Positions 12,807 to 18,021 of a DNA stretch of 32,243 nucleotides are shown here, one piece after another; position 1 is the stretch's first letter; every line of letters starts with the position of its first letter. The DNA is from Candidatus Omnitrophota bacterium (lineage in GTDB: Bacteria > Omnitrophota > Gorgyraeia > Gygaellales > JAHJCI01): contig JASFIK010000001.1 in NCBI GenBank assembly GCA_050122705.1, positions 1 to 32,243 on the forward strand, written 5' to 3'. The notes under the pieces are model-generated. The model saw only the letters and a program-made list of their open reading frames with translations. It was not told where the DNA came from and ran no database searches. The translations under genes were made by a program, and so were the position numbers.

Positions 12807-13289
12807 CTATAGTTGCAATGTTCCGCTGATGGCCTGATTTACGAATTCCTTATCATTTACCTTAAGCTGCTGGATTGATAGATGCCTAAAATCACTAGCT
12901 CCCTTTGTGGATAAAATCTTTTGCATATAATTAAAGCATCTGCGAACGCCGATTCCGCTTCCGTAGGTAGTAAATATAACCACTGGTCTTCCTAACAGGC
13001 CAGAGCAAATATCAAGATATGTATTCATTGCTGGTGCTGGTGCGAATGCCCAAACCGGAGTACCCAGACAGATTAAATCGTAATTGGATAAATCGGATTC
13101 CGCATGGACAACCCTGGCCTTCTTATGAATCAATGCTCTTGCCGCTTGGATAAAGAAAGTGGTTGATTCATCTTGTGTCTCAAGCCGCAATACCTTAACC
13201 TCATTTTCCCCCTGTAAATAATTGGCTAAGCAATCGGCTATCTTCTTGGTATTGCCGCTATACGAGTAATAAATAATTATTGCCCTCAT
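12807..13289 (-). CDS. flavodoxin-family protein
   Basis: The N-terminal IIIYYSYSGNTKKIA is an FMN phosphate-binding-loop type, followed by GTPVWAF. The ATG abuts the upstream TAA. Confidence 0.7.
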   Translation of the reverse strand: MRAIIIYYSYSGNTKKIADCLANYLQGENEVKVLRLETQDESTTFFIQAARALIHKKARVVHAESDLSNYDLICLGTPVWAFAPAPAMNTYLDICSGLLGRPVVIFTTYGSGIGVRRCFNYMQKILSTKGASDFRHLSIQQLKVNDKEFVNQAISGTLQL

Positions 13290-13574
13290 TTAATACCCGC
13301 TTTCAAAAAATATTTCCTGTTTAGAAATTGTGGTGATTTCCTTATAATCCAGGCCCTCCAGGTGGAACTCGAATGGCTTTGCTTGCCCCTTTCTAAGACC
13401 CCTTATCTTAAATATGCCTGTCCAGACAATTTTATCTTTTGCAAATAAACTAAAGCGGAAGGCCGCGGTTTGATAATTCTTGGCAGTGTTATTGCTTACT
13501 TCTCCTTTAGCAAACACCCATCCTTTTCTACCGCTCCTCGTTAAACTAACATCACGATATAAGAATCCTGGCAT
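13290..13574 (-). CDS. 94-aa hypothetical protein, beta-rich, no signal peptide
   Basis: A strong AAGGAG lies 5 nt upstream of the ATG. It is tightly packed between the EndoQ-like and flavodoxin genes. It faintly resembles FxLYD-type beta-sandwich domains (GEVSNNT..FRFSLFAKD..PFEF). This is not a confident assignment. Confidence 0.6.
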   Translation of the reverse strand: MPGFLYRDVSLTRSGRKGWVFAKGEVSNNTAKNYQTAAFRFSLFAKDKIVWTGIFKIRGLRKGQAKPFEFHLEGLDYKEITTISKQEIFFESGY

Positions 13575-13587
13575 TGACTCTCCTTTA

Positions 13588-14826
13588 TCAAAATAGGCTT
13601 AACTGCTCCTCGTTCTTAATACCCCTGTCCTCTTCGCTAAAGGTAGAAATCTTGCCGTACTCTCCATCAAAGCCAGGTTGAACAACAACCTGCCGCTCGC
13701 GTACCCGCAAGACACCTTCAGCTATTCGCTTAGGTAAATTGTTCCTCAAATCCTCTTTGCTGGCGCGCAGTAAGATTCCAAATTCACTACCAAACTTGGA
13801 TATGGCCATACGATATTCTGCAGCAACTGCCTTGCTGCCTTTATTTAATCCCTTTGCCTCAGCAATAATCTCATCTAGGGGAATAAGATTTTTATAAGGG
13901 ATTGCCTGATTGGGTTTATCGCCTAAGGGTCTATCTGCTAATTGTTCAACTCGGTTCATCACTCCAATAGTTACTCGTCTACCGCATTTAGGACAAATAC
14001 CTTTGTGCTCGTTAGTCTGGCTTGGTGAAAACCTAACCCCGCAGTTACGATGCCCGTCGAAATGATACTTACCCTCTTCGGGAAAAAATTCTATAGTATA
14101 TAAAAATCGGGTTTTGTCTTTTTTCTTTAAGCTATCAATGATATCTTTATAATTTAATTCACAATTGAACACATTGGCCTCCCGACCAATGCGCGAAGGG
14201 CTGTGGGAGTCGCTGTTGGAGATAAGGCTGAAACGGTCCAGGGCTGACCAACGCCAGTTCATCGCTGGATCAGAAGATAACCCTGTCTCCAGGGCGAATA
14301 TATTTACAGTCTGCTCCTCAAAGCAGTCCTCAATTCTATCAAATCCAGACATTGAGCCAAATACACTAAACCAAGGAGTCCAGACATGGGCAGGCACTAA
14401 TACAGACGCCTCATCAATACCAAAGACTATTCGCGCTAATTCTGCTGCATCAATACCGAGTATCGGTCGGCCATCTGAGGCCAAGTTCCCCCAGCGGCTT
14501 AAGGTATTGTTTATTTTGTCCACGCTTTTAAAAGACGGGGCAATGATAATATTATGAATCCGGTAGCCGCGTCCTGCCTTAGAATAAATACTGCTAATCT
14601 CAGCGGTTAATATGAAATATACATCACCGAATTTAAATAGGCCGTTACCTAAATCCTCTAAATTGGCTTTTAATTCCTCTAACCAGAGATGGTGAGTAAA
14701 ATCGCCTGTTCCCATTAGGGTTATGCCCTTTAATCTTGCCCATTCTGCTATGTGTTCAATATCCATATCCCGGCTGGTTGCCCGGCTGTATTTGGAATGG
14801 ATATGAAAATCAGCGATAAATTCCAT
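13588..14826 (-). CDS. endonuclease Q (EndoQ) family protein: PHP-like domain plus zinc finger
   Basis: These segments match, block by block, the archaeal/Bacillus EndoQ sequence as I remember it: ADFHIHSKYSRATS, GTGDFTH, PAHVWTPWFS, SNSDSHSPSRIGREANVF, GKYHFDGHRNC, CPKCGRRVTIGVMNRV and PGFDGEYGKI. GGGAGA lies upstream. Confidence 0.85.
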   Translation of the reverse strand: MEFIADFHIHSKYSRATSRDMDIEHIAEWARLKGITLMGTGDFTHHLWLEELKANLEDLGNGLFKFGDVYFILTAEISSIYSKAGRGYRIHNIIIAPSFKSVDKINNTLSRWGNLASDGRPILGIDAAELARIVFGIDEASVLVPAHVWTPWFSVFGSMSGFDRIEDCFEEQTVNIFALETGLSSDPAMNWRWSALDRFSLISNSDSHSPSRIGREANVFNCELNYKDIIDSLKKKDKTRFLYTIEFFPEEGKYHFDGHRNCGVRFSPSQTNEHKGICPKCGRRVTIGVMNRVEQLADRPLGDKPNQAIPYKNLIPLDEIIAEAKGLNKGSKAVAAEYRMAISKFGSEFGILLRASKEDLRNNLPKRIAEGVLRVRERQVVVQPGFDGEYGKISTFSEEDRGIKNEEQLSLF

Positions 14827-16548: not shown

Positions 16549-17476
16549 ATTTTTTATCTTGTGCTTGAGATACTAAAAAAAGTACTGCCATCCTTACAGC
16601 AATGCCATTGGTAACCTGCTGCAGGATTACTGAGTTGGCTCCGTCTGCAACCTCGCTGGATATTTCTACTCCCCGATTAAGCGGTCCAGGATGCATCACC
16701 ACAATGTCCCTTTTTGCTTTCTTAATCCTTTCCTGGGTGATGCCAAAATTTTTAAAGTATTCTATTTGACTAGGAAAGGCTTCCTTTTCATCACGCTCAA
16801 ATTGCATTCTTAAAACATTGACTGCGTCAGCGTCCTTCAAGGCTGCATCTATATCGTAAGTTACGTGTGCGCCCATTTGTTCTATGGCCACGGGAATGAG
16901 CATCTGGGGAGCGCAAACGGTTACTTTTGCACCTAACTTTGTCAATCCCCAGATATTTGAACGCGCTACCCGCGAGTGAGCAATGTCTCCTACAATTGTC
17001 ACATTTAAACCCGAGATCTTCCCTAACCTTTCCTTTAAGGTGAGGATATCTAAAAGTGCTTGGGTAGGATGCTCGTGCCACCCATCCCCAGCATTAACTA
17101 CGCTTATATCTACATGGCGGGCAAGCATGGCAGCTGCCCCTGAGCAGTTATGTCTTACTATAATGATATCGGTTTTAAGGGCCTGGATATTGGTGCCGGT
17201 ATCAATCAGGGTTTCCCCTTTTTTCACGCTCGAGGTCTCAGTCATAATATTGATTACGTCTGCGGATAATCTTTTAGCGGCGATTTCAAAGGAAACCCTG
17301 GTCCTGGTAGAGGGTTCATAAAATAGGTTGACTGCTGTTTTCCCGCGCAGTGCAGGAACCTTTTTAATTGCCCGACGCGAAACATCCTTAAACGACTCAG
17401 CGGTGGATATAATAAGCTCAATCTCCTCTTTGGTTAAATCCTCAAGACCCAATAGGTCTTTCTTTATCCAGACCAT
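16532..17476 (-). CDS. pyrB: aspartate carbamoyltransferase catalytic subunit
   Basis: It has PSTRTR, HEHPTQ and HPGPLNRG. Confidence 0.92.
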   Translation of the reverse strand: MVWIKKDLLGLEDLTKEEIELIISTAESFKDVSRRAIKKVPALRGKTAVNLFYEPSTRTRVSFEIAAKRLSADVINIMTETSSVKKGETLIDTGTNIQALKTDIIIVRHNCSGAAAMLARHVDISVVNAGDGWHEHPTQALLDILTLKERLGKISGLNVTIVGDIAHSRVARSNIWGLTKLGAKVTVCAPQMLIPVAIEQMGAHVTYDIDAALKDADAVNVLRMQFERDEKEAFPSQIEYFKNFGITQERIKKAKRDIVVMHPGPLNRGVEISSEVADGANSVILQQVTNGIAVRMAVLFLVSQAQDKKYGDTD

Positions 17477-17481
17477 ATTAT

Positions 17482-18021
17482 TTAGTCCTTTTGAACAATT
17501 ACTACCTCGTCTATGTCATCCGCTTCCAATAAGCGCACCTCCACTGTTTCGTTGGCAGCAGTGGGGATATTTTTACCTACATAATCTGCGCGTATCGGCA
17601 ATTCGCGATGACCCCGGTCTACCAATACTGCCAGCTGGGTTGATTTAGGCCTACCAAAATCAATCAGCGCATCTAGGGCAGCACGCACAGTCCTGCCGGT
17701 ATATAAAACATCATCCACCAGGACAATATTCTTATCGGTAATATCGAAATCTATCTCAGTCTTGTGCACAACTGGCTGCGGGGCAATCAGGGTTAGGTCA
17801 TCGCGATATAAAGTAATATCCAAAATCCCTACGGGAATGCCTTCTTGCTCAATATCAGCAATGCAATCAGCCAAGCGCCTGGCCAGATATGCCCCTCGAT
17901 TCCTGATTCCTATTAAACACAGGCTCTGAATACCCTTATTCTTCTCTAATATCTCGTGTGCAAGACGCCTCAGGCAGCGCCTGATTGTATCTTCGTCTAA
18001 AATCTTGGCTTTCTCTCTCAT
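17482..18021 (-). CDS. pyrR: bifunctional pyr operon regulator / uracil phosphoribosyltransferase PyrR
   Basis: [28 protein letters not shown] aligns with known PyrR N-termini. The PRPP motif is [13 protein letters not shown] prefer the ATG at 18021 over the track's GTG at 18033. Confidence 0.9.

Follow-up and report, generated by a model that had tools for sequence, protein, structure and literature searches.

Endonuclease Q and pyrimidine synthesis in Omnitrophota: a conserved endoQ gene in a pyr gene string with a predicted PyrR attenuator

The closest described relative of the locus presented here is the PyrR-attenuated pyr operon of Firmicutes (pyrR-pyrP-pyrB-pyrC-carAB-pyrK-pyrD-pyrF-pyrE in Bacillus; Rfam family RF00515), which in Bacillus subtilis contains three attenuators. 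A nuclease gene and a pyrimidine gene are also joined in the rph-pyrE operon of Escherichia coli, where the gene of RNase PH is co-transcribed with an attenuation-controlled pyrimidine gene and the uracil-exclusion gene dut lies nearby. Endonuclease Q (EndoQ) has been studied in detail in archaea and two Bacillus species, and the link between the nucleotide pool and uracil in DNA is usually discussed at the level of dUTPase and Ung only. The present study concerns a 32,243-nt stretch of DNA (hereafter the window) from a Candidatus Omnitrophota bacterium (contig JASFIK010000001.1, assembly GCA_050122705.1), in which a gene of the EndoQ family, endoQ, lies inside a string of pyrimidine genes headed by pyrR.

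In our judgement, it is reasonably probable that the minus-strand region 9983-18319 is a single pyr operon with one sigma-70-type promoter and one PyrR attenuator, of which endoQ is an ancestral and vertically inherited internal cistron between pyrC and pyrK. In Omnitrophota, endoQ would then be an internal and putatively translationally coupled gene of the pyrimidine operon, placed behind a PyrR attenuator. This offers a concrete and testable hypothesis in which the sensing of the nucleotide pool is linked to the clearing of deaminated or misincorporated bases from DNA. Should endoQ simply be hitchhiking with the pyr genes, the arrangement would be no more than an oddity in the evolution of operons. 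The components are all of known kinds, and it is their conserved combination that is new.

Bacterial EndoQ has been described as confined to few groups, and a pyr-operon genomic context is not reported in the articles dealing with it (PMC4357722, PMC5961232). The family was recovered here from at least 598 GTDB species, and is commoner in uncultivated phyla than this literature suggests. A survey of Omnitrophota does not mention the link between EndoQ and pyr genes, and no description of it was found in the literature on PyrR, pyrimidine, Omnitrophota and repair. The original prediction, a reading of the bare sequence which preceded this analysis, had held that a uracil-DNA endonuclease under a UMP/UTP signal was undescribed, and no published description of such a link has emerged.

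Gene order and conserved linkage of endoQ

The window begins origin-proximal, and the string dnaA-dnaN-dciA-gyrB-gyrA-tRNA-Glu-glmS-rsmI precedes the pyr operon, whose genes all lie on the minus strand. From pyrR onwards, the string reads as follows, coordinates being positions in the window.

17482-18021, minus strand: pyrR, bifunctional regulator and uracil phosphoribosyltransferase, 179 aa from ATG (NF003549, 252.3 bits against a cut-off of 138; PF00156 match)
16532-17476, minus strand: pyrB, aspartate carbamoyltransferase (NF002032, 410 bits against a cut-off of 263)
15274-16548, minus strand: pyrC, dihydroorotase (TIGR00857, 411 bits against a cut-off of 279)
14810-15277, minus strand: mut7C, 155-aa protein of the Mut7-C family, with PIN-like domain, four-Cys zinc ribbon and altered acidic site (PF01927, 151.1 bits against 23.3, full length)
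13588-14826, minus strand: endoQ, predicted lesion-specific DNA endonuclease of the EndoQ family, 412 aa, with PHP, Zn-binding and C-terminal helical domains (E = 1e-55 to 5zb8 and 7k30)
13290-13574, minus strand: orf94, small all-beta protein, 94 aa (predicted structure and homologues)
12807-13289, minus strand: protein of flavodoxin-like fold (PF12682, Flavodoxin_4, 39.4 against 24; PF03358, FMN_red, 35.4 against 24)

Every junction from pyrR to the flavodoxin-like gene measures 13 nt or less. A 5-nt gap separates pyrR from pyrB, pyrB and pyrC overlap by 17 nt, pyrC meets mut7C in an ATGA overlap, mut7C and endoQ overlap by 17 nt, endoQ and orf94 are 13 nt apart with AGGAG inside the gap, and the stop codon of orf94 stands directly against the ATG of the flavodoxin-like gene. 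The layout given in the original prediction proved exact on direct reading of the sequence. Its further claim, that no terminators separate these genes, agrees with the terminator scan of the minus strand of 12807-18021, which found no terminator-like site at any gene junction; the matches all lie within coding sequence, and their regional count is near the shuffled expectation. From pyrR to endoQ and beyond, the genes share one strand, leave no room for signals at their junctions and keep a conserved order, with a GC content of 0.40-0.46 throughout the region.

The linkage was surveyed in 80 species loci retrieved by an EndoQ-alignment scan of GTDB representatives and in two contigs found by exact protein look-up, onto which the window proteins were mapped (loci are cited by handles such as L001); the Omnitrophota-type loci include a few metagenome-assembled genomes (MAGs) labelled Planctomycetia that share the rsmI-pyrR context. 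The pyrC-(mut7C)-endoQ linkage is present in 17 of the 19 informative Omnitrophota-type species loci, the exceptions being L038 and L012. The adjacency is thus not confined to this genome, as the original prediction had conceded it might be. In 15 distinct loci endoQ comes directly after pyrC, or after pyrC and mut7C, and in 2 more it follows a same-strand insert of about 1.1 kb (a LolA-like gene and a small open reading frame); two further loci start at endoQ and run into pyrK. Between pyrC and endoQ, by way of mut7C in loci that have it, the junctions measure -20 to +18 nt (12 loci); between endoQ and pyrK they measure -20 to +41 nt (7 loci). The simplest form, pyrR-pyrB-pyrC-endoQ-pyrK, has junctions of -17, -4 and +1 nt (L013, L014, L028). 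In some 59 loci from other phyla, no pyr gene comes closer to endoQ than 10 kb.

The identity of EndoQ to the window protein tracks that of PyrB (Spearman 0.95, 17 loci), which points to an endoQ-pyr linkage that is old and vertically inherited. EndoQ is more conserved than PyrC (e.g. 75% against 66% identity in L001), and the block dnaA-dnaN-gyrB-gyrA-glmS-rsmI-pyr is syntenic across relatives. The locus L012 (CP070807.1, 8783-9994), where mut7C-endoQ occurs without pyrRBC, was considered as a case of an independent module and rejected: a 5'-truncated ftsH and a truncated mut7C face each other and overlap at the junction 5' of endoQ, which is a rearrangement breakpoint or an assembly join in a MAG chromosome labelled complete.

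The EndoQ protein of the window matches the crystal structures of the Pyrococcus furiosus enzyme (5zb8, 7k30) over residues 5-395 with E = 1e-55, and its close relatives carry the NCBI name 'endonuclease Q family protein'. The metal ligands of EndoQ have been identified as His8, His10, Glu76, His84, His139 and Asp193, plus His195 (PMC5961232). Residues H8, H10, E76, H91, H147, D206 and H208 of the window protein align to them and are invariant in 22 Omnitrophota EndoQs and likewise, apart from a nearly invariant H8, in a 22-sequence family alignment. The lesion pocket is formed by His139, Thr142, Glu167, Leu168, Gly169, Leu170, Asn191 and Asp193, with Trp144 as the wedge (PMC5961232). Pocket residues T150, E180, G182, L183 and N204 are invariant in the 22 Omnitrophota sequences; Leu168, a main-chain contact (PMC5961232), is replaced by Thr181 in the window protein, and otherwise no catalytic or pocket residue departs from the characterised EndoQs. 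The wedge is W152 here; of the 22 sequences, 16 have Trp at this position and 6 have His. On these alignments, the assignment to the EndoQ family is solid.

Among the relatives of the window protein (P0121, P0123, P0175 and P0129 being examples), many of the 50%-identity cluster representatives are fusions of 1000-1200 aa with a UvrD helicase, and inteins with LAGLIDADG domains are present in some of the EndoQ genes. EndoQ stands alone in 81 of the 83 fetched loci, and in the 80 species loci no helicase gene adjoins endoQ. The 1092-aa UvrD/PD-(D/E)XK protein encoded at 4081-7359 of the window was tried as a split partner equivalent to the helicase half of the EndoQ-UvrD fusions and discarded, as its likeness to that half (27% identity over 259 aa) is confined to generic SF1 motifs.

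In other phyla, PolX and a HIT-domain protein recur downstream of endoQ (6-7 loci each), and these neighbours support a role of EndoQ in DNA repair. A protein of the SLOG cluster-4/TIGR00725 family adjoins endoQ in 9 related Omnitrophota loci as well as in the window, and in 4 non-Omnitrophota loci (including L020:2598-3191), which hints at SLOG being a functional partner of EndoQ. Spacers beside endoQ in two loci (L011:5119-5260 and L016:4866-5021) fold to very stable nested palindromes, of -64.5 and -50 kcal/mol respectively, which are possibly REP-like elements.

The leader of pyrR and the extent of the unit

Upstream of pyrR, the leader contains four features.

18291-18319, minus strand: promoter-like site of the operon, TTGACA, 17 nt, TG-TATTTT (promoter scan)
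18238-18269, minus strand: predicted PyrR-binding hairpin, CCUUUAAG, stem GCCAGC, loop ACCUGCGAG, stem GCUGGC, AAGG (Rfam RF00515 and folding)
18168-18202, minus strand: intrinsic terminator of the attenuator, an 11-bp stem followed by a U-run (terminator scan and folding)
18054-18160, minus strand: additional long hairpin, placed after the attenuator and before the start codon of pyrR (folding)

Promoter, binding hairpin and terminator recur in the same order in 17 related operons, and because of this conservation the leader is read as a PyrR attenuator. The aligned leaders show a CTTGACA...TGnTATAnT layout at the equivalent place, and a stem with a T-run at the position equivalent to the terminator. 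When each sequence is folded by itself, 17 of 17 related leaders adopt the same hairpin, with differing stem sequences and a conserved loop of the GAGA(G/A) type. This per-sequence folding replaced a pair count on the alignment to a covariance model (R1), built in this analysis from the related leaders, since the MAFFT seed of the model had register shifts; in that count 67.5% of cells were paired, against 64.5% with the 3' partners slid by 1 column. Exactly one PyrR-type site was found per operon, always 5' of pyrR and never inside (loose motif scan of 2.4 Mb, covariance model on 355 kb). The cognate PyrR is encoded as well, passing the NF003549 equivalog cut-off.

The whole leader folds with z = -7.7. 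The long hairpin is very stable; its distal part (GTGCATACAATTTACG...CGTAAATTGTGCAC) ends 7 nt 5' of the pyrR start, and no Shine-Dalgarno sequence is visible. An equivalent distal hairpin with compensatory changes is present in L008, and the element at 18054-18160 may be a second, translational control element.

At the other end of the string, the original prediction had placed the first terminator-like structure at 12689-12717. This hairpin was rejected as a terminator, as it has no U-tail and a tRNA gene, absent from the original prediction, comes directly after it, and the gene string continues on the same strand.

12689-12717, minus strand: 13-bp hairpin with no U-tail, 18 nt before the tRNA (folding; not in the terminator scan list)
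12599-12670, minus strand: tRNA-Arg(CCG) in the gene string (tRNA/Rfam search)
12093-12566, minus strand: SLOG cluster-4/TIGR00725 protein, LOG-like, of a nucleotide-processing superfamily (PF18306, 144 bits; TIGR00725, 127.9 against 106.9)
11674-12069, minus strand: YjbQ/UPF0047 protein (hidden Markov model matches)
10870-11670, minus strand: Fpg/MutM, formamidopyrimidine-DNA glycosylase, the second base-damage repair gene of the string (PF01149, PF06831, PF06827)
9983-10852, minus strand: PyrK-like electron-transfer subunit of dihydroorotate dehydrogenase, an internal ATG being taken as the start (NF000798, 178.6, below the cut-off of 219)

The SLOG, YjbQ, Fpg and PyrK-like genes follow each other with gaps of 32 nt or less. 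In 9 related loci (L001, L003, L006-L010, L012, L015) the tRNA-Arg(CCG) gene comes after endoQ or the flavodoxin-like gene and before SLOG, and in L009 it begins 1 nt past the endoQ stop. This spacing leaves no room for a terminator or promoter and argues for read-through past endoQ; it also implies that tRNA-Arg is processed out of the mRNA. Fpg occurs between endoQ and pyrK in L001, L003, L006, L009, L010 and L015, and 3' of endoQ in L008 and L012, two loci with no detected pyrK. In L001 the pyrK orthologue is followed by pyrD and pyrF. The pyr unit most likely extends, judging from this comparison, through tRNA-Arg to pyrK.

The genes immediately around endoQ are far less constant. Among the related loci, a Mut7-C gene is found in 6, a flavodoxin-like gene in 5 (directly 3' of endoQ in L003, L006, L010, L012 and L015) and an orf94 homologue in 1. 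The nuclease module of four genes that the original prediction had outlined (Mut7-C, EndoQ, an orphan and a flavodoxin) is not conserved as such: by their distribution mut7C, orf94 and the flavodoxin-like gene are lineage-specific additions, and EndoQ is the only constant partner of the pyr genes.

As for Mut7-C itself, the family call stood, with a full-length PF01927 match at 151 bits, and the nuclease role became doubtful. The ribbon cysteines C93, C96, C126 and C129 are invariant, and the GxD motif and D22 are kept; where four canonical members (from Thermomicrobium, Chroococcidiopsis, Caballeronia and Ralstonia) have the Asp of FxxDxHLG and that of LTRD, it has Thr6 and Asn49, and Glu8 is invariant among the Omnitrophota proteins. 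With the catalytic residues of PF01927 assigned from PIN-fold enzymes by analogy, the site may have been remodelled or be inactive, and the protein probably lacks the canonical active site. The label 'nuclease module' therefore stands on EndoQ alone. No sequence match to the Mut7-C protein was found among solved structures. In an unrelated phylum, Thermomicrobium roseum (L084, NC_011961.1, 393776-396699) has a canonical Mut7-C-domain gene with two more genes behind it on its strand, one for a metallohydrolase of the amidohydrolase family and one for dUTPase; this pyrimidine neighbourhood may be due to chance.

The orf94 product has one close relative among 5.8 billion proteins (P0392, 84% identity), and an open reading frame at the same position in L015 encodes a homologue (31% identity, E = 3e-15). 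Its AlphaFold2 model is a beta-sandwich with a pLDDT of 85, for which Foldseek returned weak, generic Ig-like matches only, with no function assignable; the FxLYD domain NF038353 scored 21.4 bits and missed its cut-off of 23. For the protein at 12807-13289, no NCBIfam flavodoxin model comes near its cut-off, which, with the Pfam matches, supports a flavodoxin-like fold and not a defined flavodoxin. Three warnings for annotation follow from the region: its 'Mut7-C RNase' is probably without the canonical active site, the pyr operon of these bacteria bears a tRNA gene, and it also bears two genes for DNA repair.

Elsewhere in the window, 26670-26984 encodes a 104-aa DciA-like protein, with dnaN on one side and gyrB on the other. 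Three YjbQ/UPF0047 paralogues are present within the 32 kb (2578-3009, 3637-4056 and 11674-12069), two of which flank a nitroreductase gene. Beyond the PyrK-like gene and a GT2 glycosyltransferase, 4081-8335 encodes RmuC and the UvrD-type helicase of 1092 aa, whose C-terminal part gives a weak PD-(D/E)XK match; this gene order also occurs in L003, and the origin-proximal region is rich in DNA-maintenance genes.

Competing explanations

The reading of the region as one attenuated operon builds on the observed gene identities, junctions, conserved synteny and leader anatomy, and its mechanism is modelled on the established PyrR mechanism of Bacillus and on EndoQ biochemistry (PMC4357722, PMC5961232, PMC6202378). 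At high UMP/UTP, PyrR would bind the leader hairpin, the terminator (18175-18202) would form and transcription would stop at about 18170, so that the whole unit, endoQ included, would be transcribed less. When pyrimidine nucleotides are scarce, read-through would raise all cistrons together, and the overlapping stop and start codons would couple their translation. EndoQ would nick DNA 5' of deoxyuridine, deoxyinosine or abasic sites, as its characterised homologues do. By analogy with these systems, co-transcription and a response to PyrR are expected, and the repair of uracil in DNA is probably switched together with pyrimidine synthesis. As for its history, endoQ would have joined the pyr unit early; later arrivals would include tRNA-Arg, SLOG, Fpg, Mut7-C, the flavodoxin-like gene and YjbQ. 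This lineage would have added the Mut7-C-like, small beta-sandwich and flavodoxin-like genes around endoQ, and tRNA-Arg, SLOG, YjbQ and Fpg further downstream.

Several observations, including the promoter-like sites treated below, weigh against this reading. Concerning the enzyme, EndoQ matched model positions 2-374 of 374 of TIGR00375 at 186.8 bits (E = 7.6e-55) and missed the cut-off of 326.6; the match is full length, and the EndoQ and PF01927 calls of the original prediction hold. The published EndoQ has a C4 Zn-binding structure, made of Cys249, Cys252, Cys268 and Cys271 (PMC5961232). In the window protein the site is His259-Cys262-Cys278-Cys281, whose residues are invariant across the 22 Omnitrophota EndoQs and whose first-ligand His is invariant in all bacterial sequences aligned, so that an H-C-C-C zinc site in place of the C4 site is plausible. 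Concerning the leader, RF00515 scored 45.9 bits (E = 3.3e-5 in a 501-nt search) and missed the gathering score of 54. At the gathering threshold, Rfam reported two tRNAs only in the whole window, and the PyrR site surfaced in the E-value search alone. Moreover, constrained folding of the leader gave no convincing antiterminator, and the long hairpin separates the attenuator from pyrR. Despite the sub-threshold Rfam score, we take the leader to be a PyrR attenuator, since the comparative evidence from the related operons settles the question.

The remaining objection concerns where transcription of endoQ starts. A scan of 9 kb for sigma-70-like promoters gave its best match inside pyrC.

15416-15444, minus strand: candidate internal promoter at the 3' end of pyrC, TTGTCA, 17 nt, TG-TATAAT (11/12 match)

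This site lies 139 nt 5' of the mut7C ATG, and L003 shares it at 10/12. Furthermore, the pyrC-endoQ spacers of two relatives that have no Mut7-C gene (L001:9886-10000 and L006:8659-8736) have in common AAAAGCATTGAA(G/T)ATT, 17 nt, TAT(G/A)AT, matching at 9/12 with TG in L001 and at 10/12 in L006; owing to these spacers, endoQ may have PyrR-independent expression too. The string could thus consist of two expression units, in which an internal promoter (15416-15444, or the spacer in relatives) drives mut7C, endoQ, orf94 and the flavodoxin-like gene with little dependence on PyrR, and the adjacency to pyr genes reflects a stable, origin-proximal housekeeping synteny. The syntenic conservation of the whole dnaA-to-pyr block fits this possibility, as does the occurrence of such a site in 3 of 16 loci, against a background of 0.047 per 250 nt. 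We consider it somewhat unlikely. The other 13 of the 16 loci have no match of at least 10/12 upstream of endoQ or mut7C, and many pyrC/endoQ junctions are of 1-4 nt or overlapping, leaving no room for a spacer promoter. In the window, the -10 element falls on the codons for a conserved Asp-Ile-Ile of dihydroorotase, and the pyrC-internal site can therefore be a by-product of coding. Moreover, an internal promoter would supplement and not abolish read-through from the pyrR promoter, as no terminator lies between the genes. The original prediction had named the PyrR-type leader as the only upstream control; one recognisable attenuator per operon agrees with this, whereas the promoter-like sites inside pyrC and before endoQ of relatives do not, and because of them control by UMP/UTP may not be exclusive.

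A stronger version of the single-operon reading would make the linkage adaptive. Omnitrophota would have wired EndoQ, and often Fpg (excision of 8-oxoG/Fapy), into the PyrR regulon so that repair is tuned by the UMP/UTP pool, with SLOG disposing of or recycling the excised nucleotides. Such tuning could, for instance, adjust repair to the supply of nucleotides together with the demands of replication, or else to how readily dUMP might be incorporated. We regard this as unlikely. The rationale of the original prediction, based on dUTP misincorporation, is possible as speculation; pyrimidine limitation in general need not increase the dUTP/dTTP ratio, and an equally simple reading takes pyr expression as a proxy for replication demand.

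It is very unlikely that the EndoQ homologue was recruited to nucleotide metabolism, acting, e.g. in salvage, as a PHP phosphoesterase whose substrate would be a nucleotide or oligonucleotide that contains uracil, and not in genome repair. Such a role would agree with the position of endoQ, flanked by two biosynthetic genes and putatively translationally coupled, with a conservation exceeding that of PyrC, with the LOG-like SLOG protein often close by, and with a pocket which in EndoQ recognises uracil and hypoxanthine bases (PMC5961232). However, the full architecture of the DNA enzyme is kept, the Zn-binding and C-terminal helical domains aligning to residue 395, and the window protein has the wedge Trp, as have 16 of the 22 Omnitrophota sequences. 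The catalytic and pocket residues are those of characterised EndoQs except for L168T at a main-chain contact, and relatives occur as UvrD-helicase fusions, with inteins, and in other phyla with PolX as a neighbour.

Lastly, that the segment from Mut7-C to the flavodoxin-like gene is a horizontally inserted mobile or defence cassette which landed in the pyr operon by chance is hardly credible: the patchy distribution of mut7C, orf94 and the flavodoxin-like gene and the near lack of orf94 homologues would suit it, but the PADLOC defence families gave no meaningful match, no integrase, repeat or composition break is present, EndoQ is inherited vertically with PyrB, and the accessory genes occupy the same positions in several lineages.

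Comparison with described systems

The Mut7-C protein of the window resembles the canonical PF01927 proteins in its full-length Pfam match, GxD motif and four-Cys ribbon. Canonical members have about 250 aa and a ubiquitin-like N-terminal extension, whereas the window protein is without this extension and has Thr6 and Asn49 in place of Asp, with an invariant Glu8 instead.

The EndoQ protein has in common with the characterised enzymes of Pyrococcus furiosus (PF1551; 5zb8, 7k30) and Bacillus pumilus a full-length alignment, the metal ligands, the pocket residues T142, E167, G169, L170 and N191 and the wedge W144. It differs from them in the first Zn ligand, which is His for Cys, in the Thr at position L168 and in a score below the TIGR00375 cut-off.

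In the rph-pyrE operon of Escherichia coli, the nuclease is of another kind and acts on RNA, the control is a UTP-sensitive coupling of transcription and translation and not PyrR, and there is no DNA lesion endonuclease.

The Bacillus-type pyr operon is the nearest to the Omnitrophota locus. Both have the CCUUUAA...GAGAG...AAGG hairpin followed by an intrinsic terminator, the order pyrR-pyrB-pyrC...pyrK (continuing with -pyrD-pyrF in L001) and an equivalog of PyrR. The leader described here differs in scoring below the Rfam cut-off and in having no antiterminator that could be found, and a single attenuator is present. The unit is without the uracil permease, and there is no carAB in the window, L001 and other loci carrying a half-size CPSase-like gene. 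Above all, the Omnitrophota unit differs in its embedded genes, which comprise EndoQ always and Fpg, SLOG, tRNA-Arg, Mut7-C and the flavodoxin-like gene variably.

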